Shown: positions 1,860 to 36,623 of the stretch, one piece after another
Layout: the number at the start of each line of letters is the position of its first letter
Position numbering within the stretch: the first letter of the stretch is position 1
Origin: Eledone cirrhosa
Taxonomy: Eukaryota
Reading direction: 5' to 3'
Length of the DNA stretch: 64,000 bases
NCBI GenBank assembly: GCA_964016885.1
Contig: OZ024740.1
Location: 211,606,001 to 211,670,000 of the forward strand
Notes under the pieces: generated by a model
What the model saw: only the letters and a program-made list of their open reading frames with translations
The model's database searches: none
What the model was told of the DNA's origin: nothing
Made by a program: the position numbers and the translations under genes

Positions 1860-1920
<61 letters not shown>

Positions 1921-2001
1921 TTAAGGGTACTATTTATGGTTATGTATGCAATAAAACCTTTGATGGTAATATATTATATATACACAAACCCTAAATAGTG
2001 A

Positions 2002-3009
2002 GAGATAGTCTTATTTAATAATAAGAATAGCAACTGCACACACACTAATAGGGATTGTAACAACAAGAGTAACCCGCACCACAGAAATGACCATAGGAAC
2101 ATTAAAGGAAACAAATCACCAGACATAAAAAACAGTAATAGAAGAAGAAATAATACATTTTTCAACCCTCCTTTAAATTTAAACGTCTCTACCAACCTTC
2201 CTAGGGCTTTCTTCTCACTACTAGATAAACACTTCCCATCCGGCCACAGGTACCACGGCCTTTTAAACAAAAACACTATTAAGATCTCATACTCTACTAC
2301 GCCTAACTTAGCATACCACATAGCTAGTACAAATAAAAGAAAAATTAATTCTTACTTCCAACAAACTAAATCACAACGGCCGATAAACCTTCAAAATAAC
2401 ATTCAAAATGACAGTCAAAGTAACATTATAACAAATAACCGTAATATCAATGGAAATAGTAGTAATAGCACTAGTGTAAACATTAACGCTGCGTACCACA
2501 ACCCGCATAACCATAACCCTATAGCTAACCTCCAAACTTCTACACAGCATAGTAACCGGCAGACTAGCACTCAGAGTAATTGTAACTGTAGATCAAGTAG
2601 AACCTGCCCTTTAGATAAAAAATGCTTAACCAAGGATATCATATACTCATGTACGGTCACAACTAACAGCTCTTCTGAAACCTACATAGGCTCCACTTCT
2701 AACTGCTTCAAAACTAGATACAATTCGCACCTCCACTCTTTCAAAAAACACAGTCTAGCCAACTCCACTTCACTATCTAGCTACATACACTATCTAAAAA
2801 CTAAAAATAAAATATATACACTTAAATGGGAAGTGGTAGGTAGTGCAACATCGTACAAACCACCCGATAAATTTTGTAACCTCTGTCTACTAGAGACCCA
2901 TACTATCATCTTCTCTAAACATAATCTCCTTAATAAAAAATCAGAAGTGTTCGCAAATTGCCAACACCGCTTCCGACACTCGTTCCAAAACTTTAAACCC
3001 TATATATAA
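2002..3009 (+). pseudogene. PLE ORF C-terminus: RT thumb, Asn-rich linker, CxCx5Cx5C zinc finger, GIY-YIG endonuclease (335 codons, no ATG)
   Basis: Frame +1: RRRNNTFFNPPLNLNVSTNL..LDKHFP..NKNTIKISYS..CNCRSSRTCPLDKKCLTKDIIY..TYIGST..FKTRYNSH..CNLCLLE..LLNKKSEVFANCQH*. Confidence 0.92.
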
Positions 3010-4550
3010 TAATGTCAGACTGGAACCGGCACCACCCCTAGCAATTAACATCAGTAGCACACCTTACACCTCACATCCACACCCATCTCTATACTCTAAA
3101 GATAATACTGACAGCATTTGAGTGCCACCTACCCTGGGAATACCCCCTTGTACTTCTAATACTGATATCCCGACCGTGGACTACTTATTCTGCATTGCAC
3201 AAATATAAGATTAGTATAAACTGGGGACACGGTACAGGTTGTGATAGCATAGTCCTGTGCATGGATTACCACCAAGAGATAGATTGATGATTAGATAGAT
3301 AATCGTATTGTTAAGTGAGTATATACTGTAAGCGATCAGTTCATTGAATTATGCACGTAATCATCTTGATGTGGACTCCTTTAATACCTATTAATAGACT
3401 CCACTCTAGCTTGGAGATGTGATACATAATTGATTTATATTTGAGACGGGGGTTGTCTATTACCTGATGGCCAGACTAGTGCGTTTATATGAGAGATCGG
3501 ATCTCCGGAACATACCGAAGATTTACTGGAGATGCAGGCAAGCAATGACCCGGAGCCTACCGGGTGGCATATATAATAGTGGGACCATACCAGGTCCTAC
3601 TGTTGTATTACATTTGCATGGAACAGTGACTTGAGAGTCCGACTCCTCTTATAGAACGTTTAGATATGACACCCCTTAATTATTGGTTGGCAATCATCCT
3701 AGTATATACACCCTTGTACTTCTTAATGAACAACTCTCTAACTTATAAATGGGTACCATACTCTAGATATTAGTTATAACTTCACATGATAGGCACGTAT
3801 TTGAATCACCATTAATGTAGTTTAGCATAGTAATGTAACTAAAATAACTAGCTAGTTACCTCCCCTTACGCATTAATTCCCCTTAATCATTCAGGCACTT
3901 CCGGAATTTGGACAGCATGATATATTAATTAAGAACCGACTGGATACCGTTTATAGCTTGACTATATGCTGAACCACTGCGAATTATACGATAGACGCGT
4001 GTTCTCTATATATATATTGCGTCTCATGGATTATGTGAGTGGTGGTGTGAGCAAGGACAGTGGTACGACCTTGCCTACGATACAATAAGGTTTATAGTAT
4101 GTTGAAGGTTTTTGATATTTTGGTGTTTCCCCGCATCCGAGACTGTATATCATACAGATGTATGAGAATAAATGACTTAATAATTCAGCCTATATTATAA
4201 GATCGATTGCCTGCTTCAACTGCCTGACCCTGCAAATATCATTCTGACGCACTCTAATCATGTATAGATAAGACAAGCGTGCATGCTACACGGGAGATTG
4301 CTTCATGCACTGACTACTCTAAGCTTTCCTCTTGCTTTATCTTCATAGACTGCCAACGCTTCATGTTTATCTTTATTTTCACTCTTGCTTTTATTTTATT
4401 TTATTTTATTTTATTTTTATCATGTAACACTTTATATGTAAATTGCCATGCTATTTCATTTGATGAATGTCACCCCACTGTTGATCAATATGCGCATATG
4501 TTTTATGTGTCTCTTGGGTTGAAAAGGAGGTCAAGTATGTTATAAGTAGC

Positions 4551-4597
4551 TGCTCCGAAGAATCCAAACCTCGGTTTGGAGGAAACAATTGTAAGCA
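4551..4597 (+). ncRNA. Degenerate type I hammerhead at the PLE 3' end
   Basis: tgct CCGAAGA a tccaaacc tc ggtttgga g GAAA CAATTG TA agca; U4>C change in the core. Confidence 0.65.
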
Positions 4598-4656
4598 AAT
4601 AAATGACTTAAACTGAACTTTGATTACTGTAATCTCTCTCTCTCTATATATATATA

Positions 4657-7600
4657 TGTCCTGGGTATGACATTAAACTACATCCAGTGGCAAGGCTCCA
4701 GTTCGGGAGTTCAGGAGATGTGGGGAATGTGGAGTTACCCCTTAGTTGTCATGACTCCCAGGTCTGCCCTGGCCCGGGGTGGTAGTACATGTTAGGGCTC
4801 CATTTATGGGTTAAATAACTACCTTATTCGAGTGGCGCCGGTAAGGTATTGTCAGCCATTGAAAAGAAATATGGAGAGTCGATCTAACAGCACTAGGGTT
4901 AGAGCCCCTAATTACACTGTCAAGGAGCAGCCTGGTCGTTATGACTCTGATGGCTTAGAGCCACAGAGAGGGCCAGTGGATGATGGATCAGCTGTCTCTG
5001 AGACAAATATAAAGAATGCAGAAGAGCCATCAAAATGGGCACTTTGAATGTGAGGACTATTCGGACGCTGGAGAAGGGAGAGGAGTTGGGACATCTGTTC
5101 GAGGAGAGTGGTATACAGATACTTGCGATCCAAGAATACAGGATTCTACACGATGAGCCCGTGAGGAGTGTGATGATCGGGAAGAAGAGCCAGCTCATCA
5201 CTACATCGGCAGTGAAGAACACAACAAATGCTGCAGTAGGAGGAGTGGGTTTTGTGTTCAGTGCAAAAACCAATCTGTTGGTGAGGGAAATAATGCCTAT
5301 CTCCCCGCGAGTGTTGAGGGTGACCTTCAATGGAAACCCAACACTGACAGTCATCTCAGCCTATAGTCCAACCGAGGGGGACAGTGATGTGAGTGCGGAA
5401 GAGTTCCATGAGGAGGTGTGTAGAGCTGTCAACACCACTCAGGCACACAATATCCTGCTTGTTTTGGAGGACTTCAATGCACATCTGACTAAGGAGGGCA
5501 GTGAAGATCCTTGCTGGTGCTTCCATAACAACACCAACCGAAATGGAAGAATACTGGGAGACACCCTGCTGGAGGCGAACTTGATGGCGACCAACCTAAG
5601 GTTTAGGAAGAATCTGGGGAAGATGTGGACCTACATCTCAGATATGCACCTGTCCAAGTCCCAGATTGATTTCATTCTGGTGAGGAAAAAGTGGCGGAAT
5701 AGTGTTCTGAACACGGAACCATACAGCTATTTCAGTACACTGGGTAGTGACCACCGGCTTGTTATGAGTGAGGTCCGGGTGAGCTTAAGAAAGAGCAAGG
5801 CTCGGCCCCGGAGAACAATCTATGACTGGGGAGCTTTCAAGGAAGATGATAAGCTATAGGAGAGGTTCACAGTGGAAGTGAGAAACAGGTTTAGTGCTCT
5901 GTGTGGAGGGTCAGAGGAGAGAGAGATTGGATGGACTGAGGAGAGTGTGACGAGGAGGTACGGGCACTTCACCAATGCAGTGGCGGAAGCAAGTGAAACC
6001 CTGGTGCCGAGGAAAAAGAACAAAGGGAAGCACGTCAGCTCTGCAAACCCCAAAATGTGTGCAGCCAGAGAACACCTGAAAGCTGCCAAGGACCAATTCT
6101 ATGCTGATCCTACGGAGGAGAGGATGTTGAGGTGATGAGGGAAGAGCTCTGTACCGGTTACACTGAGGTCAGAGAGGAGGCACTGATAGAGAAGATTAGA
6201 AGTGTGGAGAGAGCAGTTGACAGATCTGGATGTAAGGAGAGCTGGATGATCATCAACGAGATCACAGGGAGGAAGAGAAGGTGTTCGAGTCAGATCCAGG
6301 GAACGGGACTCGAGGATAGGAAGAGGAAATGGCTAGACCATTTTAGGACCCTACTAGGAGAGCCACCCTCCACAGCCCAGAGCACTGGGGAGATCAGGCG
6401 GCTGTTTGAGGAACTGGATGTTGAGACAGAGCCCTTCACCAGAGAGGAGCTTCAGAGAGCCAAGAAGAGGATAAAGGAGGGCAAGGCTCATGGAGAAGAT
6501 GGAGTGGCATCAGAGGTGATGAAGAGGTGTGATTTTGATGATAACATCCTGGGGTTCTGTAAAGGGGCACTGGAGAAAGGAGTTTCCCCGAATCAGTGGA
6601 GGATCAGTAACATCGTCCCAGTGCCAAAGAAGGGAGATCTCTCTAACACCAACAACTACCGGGGGATCTCACTGACGTCACTTGTGGCAAAGACCCTCAA
6701 CAGGATGATTCTTAACAGGATCCAGCCTGAGATGGAGAAGAAGCTCAGGGACAACCAGAACGGCTCAGAGAGGGTAGATCAACCACCAGTCACATCCTGA
6801 TGCTGAGGAGGATATTAGAGGGAGCTAGAGCAAAGTGCCTTCCTGCGGTCATGGTTTTCATTGACTTTAGGAAGGCCTTTGATTCTGTGGACCGTTACTG
6901 CCTAATGAAGATCTTACAGGCTTATGGAATCCCCAAGAGGATAGTGGATCTGATATCACTGCTCTACACCAACACCAAAGCCCAAGTCATTACACCTAAT
7001 GGGATGACAGAGTTCTTTGAGATACTGGCTGGAATGCTCCAGGGAGATACATTGGCCCCCTACCTTTTTATCATCGTAGTGGACTATTGTATGCGCCTTG
7101 CACTGGAGAAACACCAGGACTCTGGCTTTACTGTAGCACCGGTTCAGAGCAGGAGAGTTAGGGCGAAAAAGGTATCGGATGCTGAATTTGCCGACGACAT
7201 AGTTTTGGTGACAAATACAGTGAAGGAGGCAGAGGATTTGATGCGGGAGGTTGAGACTGTGTCGATGAGTGTGGGGCTGAAAATGAATGAGACGAAAACA
7301 AAATATCTGGTAGAGAATGTTGAGAAGCCAGAGGGGATCACTAATGTAGGCGGGAAGCCGCTGGAATTGGTTGAAGACTTCCTGTATTTGGGAGCAAAGA
7401 TTGGGAATACGGAAGATGATGTGGTTGAGAGGAAGAGCAAGGCCTGGGCGGCGTGCCACAGCTTGAGATCGGTGTGGAAGTCGGACCTTCGTAGAGACCT
7501 GAAAATCCGCCTCTTCATTGCTGTAGTGGAGTCTGTGCTGCTGTATGGGTCTGAGACTTGGACACTGACCAAGAAACTCACTCAGATGGTGGATGGGTGC

Positions 7601-7950
7601 TACACGAGAATGCTGAGGATGGCTCTGAACATTAATCAGTATACACTGAGGATGAAAAACTCAGAGCTGTATGGGAGCATCCCAAAAGTCAGCTCAAAAG
7701 TGACACAGAGGAGACTGAGGATAGCTGGACATGCTCACCGACATCCAGAGTTGACATTGCACTCAGTGCTCCTTTGGGAGCCCCTACATGGACACACTAG
7801 AAGAGGAAGACCAAGGTTAACGTATGTTGATGCCCTAAAGACAGACACTGGTCTGTTGGAGACGCAGGACATGGCAGCGATAATGAGGGACAGAGACCGC
7901 TGGAGAGAACTCGTCCATGGATCTCGGGAATTTTACCCACCTTAGATAGA
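4657..7950 (+). mobile_element. Near full-length RTE-group LINE (APE + RT) in (TA)n
   Basis: APE motifs GTLNVRT, IQE, SAYSPT, DFNAH, IDFI, SDH; RT motifs NYRGISL, FIDFRKAFDSV, QGDTLAPYLF, FADD; C-terminal RGRPR. Confidence 0.93.
5035..7945 (+). pseudogene. Disrupted APE-RT ORF
   Basis: Stop at 5857-5859 and frameshifts near 6130 and 6765 split it into four track ORFs. Confidence 0.9.
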
Positions 7951-10354: not shown

Positions 10355-11362
10355 CTACAAATACTGGCAGTTGTCCACTAACTGAACCTTTCGTTAGCAG
10401 AGTAACACAAGTTACATACACCATCTCCACTACAAATGCTGACAGTTGTCCACTAACTGAACCTTTCGTTAGCAGAGTAACACAAGTTACATACACCATC
10501 TCCACTACAAATGCTGACAGTTGTCCACTAACTGAACCTTTCGTTAGCAGAGTAACACAAGTTACATACACCATCTCCACTACAAATACTGGCAGTTGTC
10601 CACTAACTGAACCTTTCGTTAGCAGAGTAACACAAGTTACATACACCATCTCCACTACAAATACTGGCAGTTGTCCACTAACTGAACCTTTCGTTAGCAG
10701 AGTAACACAAGTTACATACACCATCTCCACTACAAATGCTGACAGTTGTCCACTAACTGAACCTTTCGTTAGCAGAGTAACACAAGTTACATACACCATC
10801 TCCACTACAAATGCTGACAGTTGTCCACTAACTGAACCTTTCGTTAGCAGAGTAACACAAGTTACATACACCATCTCCACTACAAATACTGGCAGTTGTC
10901 CACTAACTGAACCTTTCGTTAGCAGAGTAACACAAGTTACATACACCATCTCCACTACAAATGCTGACAGTTGTTCACTAACTGAACCTTTCGTTAGCAG
11001 AGTAACACAAGTTACATACACCATCTCCACTACAAATACTGGCAGTTGTCCACTAACTGAACCTTTCGTTAGCAGAGTAACACAAGTTACATACACCATC
11101 TCCACTACAAATGCTGACAGTTGTCCACTAACTGAACCTTTCGTTAGCAGAGTAACACAAGTTACATACACCATCTCCACTACAAATGCTGACAGTTGTC
11201 CACTAACTGAACCTTTCGTTAGCAGAGTAACACAAGTTACATACACCATCTCCACTACAAATGCTGACAGTTGTCCACTAACTGAACCTTTCGTTAGCAG
11301 AGTAACACAAGTTACATACACCATCTCCACTACAAATGCTGACAGTTGTTCACTAACTGAAC
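10355..11362. repeat. 75-bp minisatellite, ~13.4 near-identical copies
   Basis: Unit ttgtccactaactgaacctttcgttagcagagtaacacaagttacatacaccatctccactacaaat(gctgac/actggc)ag; diverged copies at ~9929-10047. Confidence 0.97.
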
Positions 11363-23620: not shown

Positions 23621-26600
23621 ACACATGTATTACACACACATACACATGTATGTATTACACATACATACACACACATGTATGTATTACATATACATACACA
23701 TGTATGTATTACACATACATACACATATGTATTACACATACATACACATATATGTAGTACACATACATACACATGTATGTATTACACATACATACATATG
23801 CATGTATTACACATACATACACATATGTGTTACACATACACACACATATATGTATTACACATACATATATGTATTACACATACATACATATATATGTATT
23901 ACACATACATACACATATATGTATTACACATACATACATATATATGTGAAGATAGACATAGAATATTCGAAAATATTCTGTATGTTTATAATAAACATTT
24001 TGAAGACCTAATCGCTATAGAATAGAATACGTCACGTATACACATACATACACATATATGTATTACACATACACACAAGTATGTATTACACATACATACA
24101 TATGTATGTATTACACATACATACGCATGTATGTATTACACATACATACACATGTATGTATTACGCATACATATGCAATATATGTATTACACATACATAC
24201 ACACATGTATGTATTACACATACATGTACATACATGTATTACACATATATACACACATGTATGTATTACACATAAATACACAATACATGTATTACACATA
24301 CATACACACATATGTATTACACATACATACACACATGTATTACACATATATGTATTACACACACATACACGTATATGTATTACACATACACACACATATA
24401 TGTATTACAATAGATACACACATGTATTACACATATATGTATTACACATACATACACATATATGTATTACACATACATACACATATATGTATTACACATA
24501 CATACAGACACATGTATGTATTACACATACATACACATGTATGTATTACACATACATACACACATATGTATTACACATACATACACACATACATACACAC
24601 ATATGTATTACACATACATACACACATATGTATTACACATACATACACATATGTGTATTACACATACATACACATGTGTATTACACATACATACACATGT
24701 ATGTATTACACATACATACACATATATGTATTACACATACATACACACGTATGTATTACACATACATACACACATATGTATTACACATACATACACATAT
24801 GTGTATTACACATACATGCACATATGTGTATTACACATGCATACACATGTATGTATTACACATACATACACACATATGTATAACACATACATAGACACAT
24901 GTGTATTACACATACATACACACATGTGTATTACACATACATACACACATATGTATTACACATACAAACACACATATGTATTACACATACATACACATAT
25001 ATGTATTACACATACATACACACATATGTGTATTACACATACATACACACATATGTATTACACATACATACACACATATGTATTACACATACATACACAC
25101 ATGTGTATTACACATACATACACACATATGTATTACACATACATACACACATATGTATTACACATACATACACACGTATGTATTACACATACATACACAC
25201 ATATGTATTACACATACATACACATATGTGTATTACACATACATACACACATATGTATTACACATACATACAGATATGTGTATTACACATACATACACAC
25301 ATATGTATTACACATACATACACATATATGTATTACACATACATACACACATATGTATTACACATACATACACATATGTGTATTACACATACATACACTT
25401 ATGTGTATTACACATACATACACACATATGTATTACACATACATACACACGTATGTATTACACATACATACACACATATGTATTACACATACATACACAT
25501 ATGTGTATTACACATACATACACACATATGTATTACACATACATACACACGTATGTATTACACATACATACACACGTATGTATTACACATACATACATAT
25601 GTATTACACATACATACACACATATGTATTACACATACATACACATATGTGTATTACACATACATACACATGTATGTATTACACATACATACACATATAT
25701 GTATTACACATACATACACACGTATGTATTACACATACATACACACATATGTATTACACATACATACACATATGTGTATTACACATACATGCACATATGT
25801 GTATTACACATACATACACATGTATGTATTACACATACATACACACATGTGTATTACACATACATACACACGTATGTTTAACACATACATACACACATAT
25901 GTATAACACATACATAGACACATGTGTATTACACATACATACACACATGTGTATTACACATACATACACACATATGTATTACACATACAAACACACATAT
26001 GTATTACACATACATACACATATATGTATTACACATACATACACACATATGTGTATTACACATACATACACACATATGTATTACACATACATACACACAT
26101 ATGTATTACACATACATACACACATATGTATTACACATACATACACACATGTGTATTACACATACATACACACATATGTATTACACATACATACACACAT
26201 ATGTATTACACATACATACACACGTATGTATTACACATACATACACACATATGTATTACACATACATACACATATGTGTATTACACATACATACACACAT
26301 ATGTATTACACATACATACAGATATGTGTATTACACATACATACACACATATGTATTACACATACATACACATATATGTATTACACATACATACACACAT
26401 ATGTATTACACATACATACACATATGTGTATTACACATACATACACTTATGTGTATTACACATACATACACACATATGTATTACACATACATACACACGT
26501 ATGTATTACACATACATACACACATATGTATTACACATACATACACATATGTGTATTACACATACATACACACATATGTATTACACATACATACACACGT

Positions 26601-29600
26601 ATGTATTACACATACATACACACGTATGTATTACACATACATACATATGTATTACACATACATACACACATATGTATTACACATACATACACATATGTGT
26701 ATTACACATACATACACATGTATGTATTACACATACATACATAGGTATTACACATACATACAGACATATGTATTACACATATATACACATATGTGTATTA
26801 CACATACATACACACATATGTATTACACATACATACACACATGTGTATTACACATACATACACACATATGTATTACACATACATACACACATGTATTACA
26901 CATACATACACACGTATGTATTACACATACATACACCTATGTGTATTACACATACATACACGTGTATGTATTACAATACATACACCCATATGTATTACAC
27001 ATACATACACACATATGTATTACACATACATACACACATGTATTACACATACATACACATGTATGTATTACACATACATACACACATATGTATTACACAT
27101 ACATACACATATGTCTATTACACATACATACACATACATGTATTACACATACATACACACATATGTATTACACATACATACACATATGTGTATTACACAT
27201 ACATACACACATATGTATTACAATACATACACATATGTGTATTACACATACACACATATGTATTACACATACATACACACATATGTATTACACATACATA
27301 CACACATATGTATTACACATACATACACACATATGTATTACATATACATACACACGTATGTATTACACATACATACACACATATGTATTACACATACATA
27401 CACATATATGTATTACACATACATACACACATATGTATTACACATACATACACATGTATGTATTACACATACATACACACATATGTATTACACATACATA
27501 CACATGTGTATTACACATCCATACACACATGTATTACACATACATACACATATATGTATTACACATACATACACACATATGTATTACACATACATACACA
27601 TATGTGTATTACACATACATACACATGTATGTATTACACATACATACACATGTATGTATTACACATACATACACATATGTGTATTACACATACATACACA
27701 CATATGTATTACACATACATACACATATATGTATTACACATACATACACACATATGTATTACACATAGATACACATATGTGTATTACACATACATACACA
27801 TATGTGTATTACACATACATACACACGTATGTATTACACATACATACACACGTATGTATTACAGATACATACACACATATGTATTACACATACATACACA
27901 TATGTGTATTACACATACATACACACATATGTATTACACATACATACACACGTATGTATTACACATACATACAAACATATGTATTACACATACATACATA
28001 TATGTGTATTACACATACATACACATGTATGTATTACACATACATACACACATATGTATTACACATACATACACATATATGTATTACACATACATACACA
28101 CATATATATTTACACATACATACACATATGTGTATTACACATACATACACACATATGTATTACACATACATACACATATGTGTATTACACATACATACAC
28201 ACATATGTATTACACATACATACACACATATGTAGTACACATACATACACACATGTGTATTACACATACATACACACATATGTATTACACATACATACAC
28301 ACATATGTATTACACATACATACACACGTATGTATTACACATACATACACATATGTGTATTACACATACATACACATGTATGTATTACACATACATACAC
28401 ACATGTGTATTACACATACATACACATATACGTATTACACATACATACACACAGATGTATTACACATACATACACATATGTGTATTACACATACATACAC
28501 ATATGTGTATTACACATACATACACATGTATGTATTACACATACATACACATGTATGTATTACACATACATACACATGTATGTATTACACATACATACAC
28601 ACATATGTATTACACATACATACACATATATGTATTACACATACATACACACATGTATTACACATACATACACACATATGTATTACACATACATACACAT
28701 GTATGTATTACACATAGATACACACATATGTATTACACATACATACACATATGTGTATTACACATCCATACACACATATGTATTACACATACATCCACAT
28801 ATATATATTACACATACATACACACATATGTATTACACATACATACACATATGTGTATTACACATACATACACACATATGTATTACACATACATACACAC
28901 ATATGTATTACACATACATACACACATATGTATTACACATACATAAACACATGTGTATTACACATACATACACACATATGTATTACACATACATACACAC
29001 ATATGTATTACACATACATACACACGTATGTATTACACATACATACACATATGTGTATTACACATACATACACATGTATGTATTACACATACATACACAC
29101 ATATGTATTACACATACATACACATATATCTATTACACATACATACACACATATGTATTACACATACATACACATACATGTATTACACATACATACACAC
29201 ATATGTATTACACATACATACACACATATGTATTACACATACATACACACATGTGTATTACACATACATAGACATCCATACACACATATGTATTACACAT
29301 ACATACACATATATGTATTACACATACATACACACATATGTGTTACACATACATACACACATATGTATTACACATACATACACATATGTGTATTACACAT
29401 ACATACACATGTATGTATTACACATCCATACACATGTATGTATTACACATACATACACACATATGTATTACACATACATACACACATATGTATTACACAT
29501 ACATACACACATATGTATTACACATACATACACATATGTATTACACATACATACATACATACACATGTATGTATTACACATACATACACACATATGTATT

Positions 29601-29862
29601 ACACATACATACACATGTATGTATTACACATACATACACACGTATGTATTACACATACATACACATATGTGTATTACACATACATACACACATATGTATT
29701 ACACATACATACACACATGTGTATTACACATACATACACACATATCTATTACACATACATACACACATGTGTATTACACATACACACACACATATGTATT
29801 ACACATACATACACATGTATGTGTATTACACATACATACACATGTATGTATTACACATACAC
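23621..29862. repeat. ~25-bp satellite (tattacacatacatacacacatatg), ~6.2 kb, roughly 250 units
   Basis: Directly visible; short unique interruption ~23945-24035. Confidence 0.97.
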
Positions 29863-34491: not shown

Positions 34492-34496
<5 letters not shown>

Positions 34497-34721
34497 GTAG
34501 AACACTGGAAGGTAATATCTGTAGTGGTAGAGCACTCAGTCCATGGGACGAATTAGATAGAAGTGGTTACACAACAGTTAGTTCACCATACCGAGAACAA
34601 TTGTTTCACCTTATGTTCTCGGTATGGTTAACTAACTGTTGTGTAACCACTTCTACCTAACTCGTCCCATGGACTGAGTGCTCTACCACTACAGATATTA
34701 CCTTCCAGTGTTCTACCACTA
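34492..34721. mobile_element. Palindromic element in (TA)n with HHR 3' half at its centre
   Basis: Arms 34492-34599 / 34614-34721; minus strand reads GAAA CAATTG TT at the junction. Confidence 0.8.
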
Positions 34722-34758
34722 TATATATATATATATATACACACACCCACACACACAC

Positions 34759-34878
<120 letters not shown>

Positions 34879-36580: not shown

Positions 36581-36623
36581 ACGTTGCTGACGATAGCTAA
36601 TAAGCTTGAAACTAGTACAGCGT
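36581..36623 (+). ncRNA. Minimal type I hammerhead between ~95-bp inverted repeats (36474-36569 / 36736-36832)
   Basis: acgttg CTGACGA t agct aata agct t GAAA CTAG TA cagcgt. Confidence 0.85.

Follow-up and report, generated by a model that had tools for sequence, protein, structure and literature searches.

A two-armed insertion of a Hydra-type Penelope-like element in Eledone cirrhosa, probably copied from two hairpin-marked start sites

Penelope-like elements (PLEs) encode reverse transcriptases (RTs) that form the sister group of telomerase, and the open questions about PLEs that we address here concern the origin of their inverted arms and one-sided tail and the role of their hammerhead ribozymes (HHRs). 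Two described clades are of immediate relevance. The Hydra clade is defined by a C-terminal GIY-YIG endonuclease (EN), an RWK motif, a DKT motif, a CxCx5C linker, CxxC and CxH motifs around the E and N residues of the EN, no CCHH motif, and (TA)n targets, and the Naiad clade, in the same survey, by an EN at the N-terminus and the lack of a canonical HHR (PMC8557442). Mechanistic information comes from Poseidon-Ac, whose RT was shown in vitro to start at two internal sites, with both strands being extended (PMC11167929); a one-sided tail and two start sites are already published for PLEs. For the inverted arms, a fold-back or antisense-template origin has been proposed in work on the Penelope families of the rotifer Adineta vaga (PMC3846280).

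The insertion described here lies in a stretch of 64,000 nucleotides of the E. cirrhosa genome (assembly GCA_964016885.1, contig OZ024740.1, positions 211,606,001 to 211,670,000), the whole of which we call the window. Read from left to right, a (TA)n tract is followed by an inverted arm of 97 bp, by the main arm, which is truncated at its 5' end, and then by (CT)n and (AT)n (Table 1). We take the whole to be a 5'-truncated copy, with two arms, of a young Hydra-clade PLE, probably made by copying one RNA from two hairpin-marked starts. The main arm aligns end to end with fetched genomic loci and is 99.2% identical to the closest sampled copy, and the inverted arm is the reverse complement of the sequence that longer copies carry beyond the 4637 end, matching the tails of full-length copies at 100%; the two arms meet at 2012/2013 with no overlap. 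The preliminary description of this DNA reported an open frame of 335 codons without an ATG, and such a frame is present (2002-3009, plus strand, stop to stop, zero Met). Its first four codons (2002-2013) derive from a stretch of the element's own tail in inverted orientation, and the native ORF begins at 2014, which corresponds to residue 497 of the full protein. The insertion does start at a TA tract, as had been stated, with the qualification that this start runs through the inverted arm and not through the ORF. Because the RT is absent, the window copy is immobile on its own, and it is itself a dead fragment.

Table 1. Features of the two-armed insertion and of a second Hydra-type element in the window (L013 is a genomic locus carrying the full unit).
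Feature	Position	Strand	Basis
(TA)n target tract, left flank	1862..1915	.	sequence
Inverted second arm, 97 bp of own 3' tail (L013 7640-7736), ending at the long (L) start site, 1916	1916..2012	-	100% tail match; junction without overlap
Main arm, 5'-truncated Hydra-clade PLE copy (L013 4951-7565)	2013..4637	+	alignment, 99.2%
C-terminal 331 aa (aa 497-827) of RT-EN polyprotein	2014..3009	+	comparison with full-length ORF
First Asn/His/Arg-rich linker, remainder (aa 497-540), predicted disordered	2014..2145	+	pLDDT <50 at aa 485-538; omega 0.52 vs sister family
Second Asn/Ser/Gln-rich linker, 73 aa, predicted disordered	2362..2580	+	pLDDT <50 at aa 637-681; 43% aa identity, omega 0.33 vs sister family
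CxCx5Cx5C linker zinc-finger-like motif, Hydra type	2581..2625	+	four Cys invariant in 56 aligned sequences; Hydra definition
GIY-YIG endonuclease; Y, Y-G, R, H, E, N intact; CxxC and CxH flank E and N; no CCHH	2632..3006	+	invariant columns; I-TevI fold match
Long non-coding 3' UTR, fast-evolving, retained in full-length copies	3010..4550	+	alignment with copies and sister family C
Type I hammerhead variant, predicted cleavage after 4593	4551..4597	+	CCGAAGA core (U4C), A.G at 10.1/11.1, 7-bp stem II, palindromic stem III
Short (S) 3' end, six CT units (internal sites: two)	4633..4645	+	comparison with internal S sites
(AT)n target tract, right flank	4646..4657	.	sequence
Two-armed (L/L) stump of a different Hydra-type family, not part of the window element	34494..34760	.	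CUGAGGA HHR core, 8-nt stem III palindrome in common

Other repeats also occur in the window. A LINE with an AP endonuclease (PF14529) and an RT (PF00078), broken by stops and frameshifts, adjoins the insertion on its right (4660-7945), and upstream of the element two palindromic segments (541-744 and 1002-1346) are, by eye, possibly two-armed repeats between TA tracts. Tandem repeats are represented by about 249 copies of a 25-bp satellite (23621-29861) and by an array of 13 units of 75 bp that are 98% identical (10355-11362).

When the last 148 residues of the window frame were used as a query against the species' own 3.0-Gb genome, at least 150 matches of 93-100% identity were obtained, and 120 loci of this window family (family A) were extracted around matches among those listed. 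Seventeen loci carry a long frame, which is complete (829-830 codons) in 11, interrupted by premature stops in 4, and truncated in 2; the full protein (P0001) is 827 residues long, with the RT first and the EN at the C-terminus, in a unit of 4,318 bp (L013 3422-7739). These full-length copies retain the long non-coding stretch of about 1.55 kb that the preliminary description had placed before the HHR, and which in the window measures 1,545 nt from the stop to the hammerhead core. A hidden coding region in this stretch is rejected, as the homologous UTR of the L013 copy has no frame longer than 81 codons. The distance from stop to HHR is 1.35-1.46 kb in the sister family C, 1.55 kb in family A, and 2.0-2.35 kb in a further sister family, D, and a family A subfamily with a tandem duplication has a UTR about 0.39 kb longer; the long 3' UTR is a trait of the lineage. 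A SECIS element, also suggested for this region, is irrelevant because the 11 full-length ORFs have no in-frame UGA, and a crude regular-expression search gave three unconvincing matches.

Two Asn-rich linkers of the protein are expanded, and both are predicted to be disordered (pLDDT <50). The second, described beforehand as an Asn-, Ser-, and Gln-rich insert of some 80 residues, is real and measures 73 residues by our boundaries (N19, S12, Q9). The interval from ISYST to CNC spans 102 residues here; its median length is 35 among the 78 homologs that have at least 600 residues (30-46 in 74 of them, and 91 and 128 in two), and the excess is therefore about 65-70 residues. Comparison with family C (pS 0.41, 81-82% amino acid identity) gives omega values of 0.10 (RT) and 0.09 (EN), as against 0.52 and 0.33 in the two linkers, and the family A UTR can be aligned to that of family C only over its last ~330 nt and, in its middle, over a 55-nt block. 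We regard both linkers and the middle of the UTR as probable spacers that are tolerated. Similarly, in the Penelope families of Adineta vaga the ORF has Asn-rich inserts, 0.9-1.5 kb of spacer precede the 3' pLTR, and one of the inverted pLTRs bears a tail; they belong, however, to a different PLE clade, and their spacers vary among 90%-identical copies, whereas the UTR here is a stable family trait (PMC3846280).

The hammerhead that the preliminary description placed at the 3' end of the element is there in its architecture, a type I layout, but its core reads CCGAAGA instead of CUGANGA, and Rfam is silent: nothing in the window reached the gathering score, and the 3000-4700 interval gave only three chance matches. 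The variant core is a property of the family, as 237 of 241 motif occurrences in the fetched, partly overlapping loci begin with CCGA and none with CTGA, and a 20-mer has 4,209 genome-wide matches with C and 34 with the canonical T (the exact 42-mer has 1,285). Family C has the same core, stem II, and cleavage triplet, with a covarying stem III of CAGCTG in place of CAATTG, both of them palindromes, and family D has a canonical CUGAUGA core. The motif deviates from the canonical HHR in the U4C change and in a non-Watson-Crick A.G pair at 10.1/11.1; since 15 of 26 listed Hydra HHR rows are also non-Watson-Crick at 10.1/11.1 (PMC8557442), U4C is the main deviation. A palindromic stem III fits the dimeric HHRs of PLEs (PMC4209133), and the U4C change is on record in a viroid, as a variant whose in vitro activity is much reduced but which still supports infectivity (PMC3088659). 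The U4C hammerhead is likely to be a weak ribozyme, assisted by dimerization or by protein, and to be dispensable for defining the ends of the element.

We lean against, but take seriously, the possibility that this hammerhead is catalytically dead and is retained as a structural or protein-binding hairpin. The considerable loss of in vitro activity with U4C (PMC3088659) and the failure of Rfam to recognize the motif are in keeping with a dead ribozyme, as are the in vitro insertion of Poseidon-Ac, which could do without HHR cleavage (PMC11167929), and a 551-bp family, discussed below, which has the start hairpins and no canonical HHR. On the other hand, the core, stem II, and cleavage triplet are the same in families A and C at a pS of about 0.41, with stem III exchanged palindrome for palindrome, and the viroid that bears the same variant is still infectious (PMC3088659). 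Two further observations concern hammerheads: at one locus (L061:2229-2411) an inverted arm ends at the predicted HHR cleavage site and is followed by S-end sequence, which may reflect a microhomology deletion or the use of a cleaved RNA, and hammerhead-core motifs of other repeat families occur in the window at 36587 (CTGACGA) and 60074 (CTGATGA).

The reading of the insertion as a likely product of two starts on one RNA rests chiefly on where its copies end. The 3' ends of copies cluster at two sites only, the short site S, at window 4637, and the long site L, 171 nt further. The preference for TA targets claimed beforehand is borne out at both, with (TA)4 found within 30 nt after 93 of 99 S ends and 70 of 75 L ends, compared with a background of 11% in the window. 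Among 121 loci, 69 are two-armed and 52 single-armed. The two-armed loci with both ends classed (59; in the remaining 10 one end was unclassifiable) comprise 30 L/S, 28 S/L, 1 L/L, and 0 S/S (binomial p 2e-16). Family C behaves alike: of 31 loci, 12 are L+S, a further one was so classed by eye, and none is truly of the same type at both ends. The exceptions to the pairing are one L/L locus of family A (L093), one S/S locus of the 551-bp non-coding family (L250), and the L/L copy near 34600 in the window. Single-armed loci end at S in 43 cases, at L in 7, and elsewhere in 2, so a visible second arm is not obligatory. Our literature search, in which subscription journals were largely outside coverage, found nothing for PLEs on twin start hairpins, on the pairing of one S with one L end, or on stutter at initiation.

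It might be supposed instead that the inverted arm arises by fold-back or self-priming of one cDNA, or from an antisense template, with the hairpins only marking sites of RNA processing or stalling. The sharing of subtype by the two arms in 44 of 44 loci that span a diagnostic site (chance expectation 11) and the frequent microhomology of 1-10 nt at arm junctions would both suit such an origin. We nevertheless regard it as unlikely. The two arms usually begin kilobases apart in the element, and the occurrence of one S plus one L end is not predicted. Moreover, in five L/S loci without a pLTR (the window, L036, L047, L073, and L110) the inverted arm consists wholly of tail, and fold-back copying cannot yield these loci because that tail is missing from the main arm. 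Under copying from two starts, the shared subtype speaks for a single RNA as template, although two transcripts of the same active source locus, or a later gene conversion of one arm by the other, could produce it too.

A few bases 3' of both the S and the L ends stands a bulged hairpin, ACNGCTC..TTGAGCT, in families A, C, and D. Its inner stems covary among family A, family C (81% amino acid identity), and family D (51%), and the pattern has 7,162 matches in the genome compared with 16 for a reversed control; the hairpin at the L site is weak (-3.5 kcal/mol). The S ends further carry extra CT units: four or more are found at 60 of 99 terminal S sites and at 0 of 82 internal ones. In family C, the unit repeated is that family's own 9-nt TTTCATATA, with repeats at 10 of 21 terminal sites and at 1 of 55 internal ones (two misread internal sites were reassigned by eye). 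We read these repeats as probable stutter of the RT at initiation. They might otherwise be target microsatellites that existed before insertion, or products of later replication slippage, in a genome that is indeed microsatellite-rich and in which 4 of 20 single-armed copies with five or more CT units have (AG)n on the other flank. This explanation is improbable to us, given that a mirrored tract is seen in only 1 of 25 two-armed loci, that internal S sites are never expanded, and that the unit repeated in family C is that of its own template and not a genomic microsatellite.

These observations, all of them footprints in genomic sequence, can be combined in a proposed mechanism of two starts on one RNA. 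The element's RT-EN would nick a (TA)n tract on each of its strands, and it would bind, perhaps in dimeric form, the two hairpins of a single transcript. Reverse transcription would then be primed by the nicked TA ends, each annealing to the AU-rich stretch immediately 5' of a hairpin, with one start site used per strand. In the manner of telomerase, the RT would often slip back at the start and copy the same 2-9 nt anew. Synthesis of both cDNAs would end prematurely, and short microhomology would serve to join them head to head. Much of this resembles Poseidon-Ac in vitro, where the tail is set by two internal RT starts, cleavage and extension take place on both strands, the target is AT-rich, and a dimer is predicted; the starts of Poseidon-Ac are, however, adjacent in one AC-rich stem-loop inside the ORF and show no strand difference, whereas those described here are 171 nt apart in the UTR, each followed by a hairpin copy, and genomic copies pair one S with one L end (PMC11167929). 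The eel LINE UnaL2 likewise has a protein-recognized stem-loop beside its start and telomerase-like slippage at initiation, but it starts at a 3' repeat of its RNA downstream of the stem-loop, and the start here is internal, upstream of the hairpin, and doubled (PMC1636434).

One might go further, and we do so tentatively, holding the idea to be somewhat short of probable: perhaps Hydra-type PLE RTs are telomerase-like enzymes with two RNA anchors, in which twin hairpins seat two RT subunits on one transcript, each priming one nicked TA strand at its own start and able to add template repeats before elongation. The hairpin pair alone, without a ribozyme, would then license the 551-bp passenger, and the lineage would have multiplied thousands-fold with its U4C hammerhead.

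That the element belongs to the Hydra clade is very likely. The earlier recognition of a PLE with a GIY-YIG EN is borne out by the intact copies and by the fold of the EN, whose model matches the catalytic domain of I-TevI (Z 9.2, rmsd 2.4 over 89 residues); the model of the full protein (mean pLDDT 85.5) has telomerase RTs as its best matches. The EN residues Y, Y-G, R, H, E, and N are invariant among 56 aligned sequences, and the invariant columns of the EN region include C9, C11, C17, C23, C107, C110, E113, N126, and C135, and the one Cys lying between the Tyr motifs varies. The protein has RWR at residue 38, in the position of the Hydra RWK and in place of GxKF/Y, and ADKT at residue 122, with the DKT that in Hydra replaces DKG; of 79 long homologs, 73 have DKT/S and none has DKG. 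All features of the Hydra protein signature (C-terminal EN, RWK-like motif, DKT, CxCx5C, CxxC/CxH, no CCHH) are found in intact copies, and the signature of Neptune, Nematis, and Poseidon (CCHH in the EN, DKG) is not. The (TA)n target agrees with the clade as well (PMC8557442); of the canonical HHR that Hydra elements carry near the 3' end, families A and C have the architecture with a U4C core, and family D has the canonical core.

Sequence profiles were of little help, as Pfam matched neither the window frame nor the full protein and, among 50 homologs, found GIY-YIG in 3 and RVT_1 in 1; PDB sequence searches were uninformative, and Foldseek gave no significant match for the EN model, though its top nine rows were GIY-YIG nucleases. 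The closest named homologs come from Argonauta hians, and a FastTree tree of 50 rows (6 of our own and 44 homologs, no labelled clades) places families A, C, and D in one group near Argonauta proteins. Several traits set the element apart from the Hydra families listed in PMC8557442. Its unit of 4.3 kb exceeds the 1.1-3.0 kb of 27 listed families and does not show the tendency of the clade to units below 3 kb, which is not diagnostic; its ORF of 827 residues has two Asn-rich linkers and its 3' UTR is 1.5-1.9 kb long; its HHR core is U4C, where all 26 listed HHR rows begin CUGA; and its tail is 171 nt long and not 30-40 bp. Hydra-1_Obim of Octopus bimaculoides, compared by eye only, is a separate family with a different HHR. 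On these comparisons, the element is a previously undescribed variant family within the known Hydra clade.

An identity as a Naiad, which the preliminary description had proposed from a CxCx5Cx5C motif, has next to no probability: the motif is present, Naiads share a Cys-rich finger upstream of GIY-YIG, (TA)n targets, and inverted 5' arms, and they are known in Octopus, but CxCx5C is the linker finger of Hydra, and Naiads have an N-terminal EN, CCHH, DKA, an IFD, and, as they are described there, no canonical HHR (PMC8557442), whereas this element has DKT, no CCHH, an HHR architecture, an N-terminus and RT that by eye follow Hydra-1_Ajap and Hydra-1_Obim closely, and an RT-then-EN order in full-length copies that refutes the assignment.

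The preliminary description also suggested that this lineage could supply the RT and EN for short HHR elements, pointing to a stem III (GAAA CAATTG T) common to the window HHR and an element near 34600. The GAAACAATTGT of the window HHR does recur at 34607 on the minus strand; the match is weak evidence, because a sister family at 81% identity carries CAGCTG. The element near 34600 is the stump of another family, in which a GIY-YIG ORF of its own, 26-27% identical to P0001, ends about 200 bp upstream in 6 of 20 sampled loci, and blastn found no similarity between it and the A, C, and D units. It was rejected as a non-autonomous partner on account of this Hydra-type EN and, by its own coding content, has no need of the window lineage. 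Its 3' UTR is short, its HHR is canonical, and its short end is followed by a hairpin of the variant form ACTC/GAGT.

Indirect support for the supply of enzymes in trans comes instead from the 551-bp tandem non-coding family that shares the start hairpins. It came to light at one of 19 loci chosen for unusual hairpin variants (L223:3518-5070, at G000:C1:42789300-42797300) and is seen also at L242-L261, and a first look gave 3,936 candidates. This family carries both hairpins, ends just 5' of them, and has S+L ends in five of six two-armed insertions; it shows no similarity to the A, C, and D units and lacks a canonical HHR. It is plausibly a candidate non-autonomous passenger of this or a related Hydra lineage. 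An origin of retrozymes from PLEs has already been proposed (bioRxiv 10.64898/2026.07.22.740005). Families C (L138-L172) and D (L133-L145) are further Hydra families with intact ORFs of 810-830 residues, and the sampled family C proteins, about 99% identical to each other, suggest a very recent burst.

A young family with intact ORFs and over a thousand near-identical 3' ends offers cis signals that can be mutated, namely two hairpins, two starts, and a U4C ribozyme. Copying from two starts also makes a quantitative prediction, in that each event should yield one S and one L end from a single RNA, with a stutter specific to the template. If it is true, it would explain the tail of PLEs, tie their initiation to telomerase-style realignment, and clarify how non-coding passengers are chosen.
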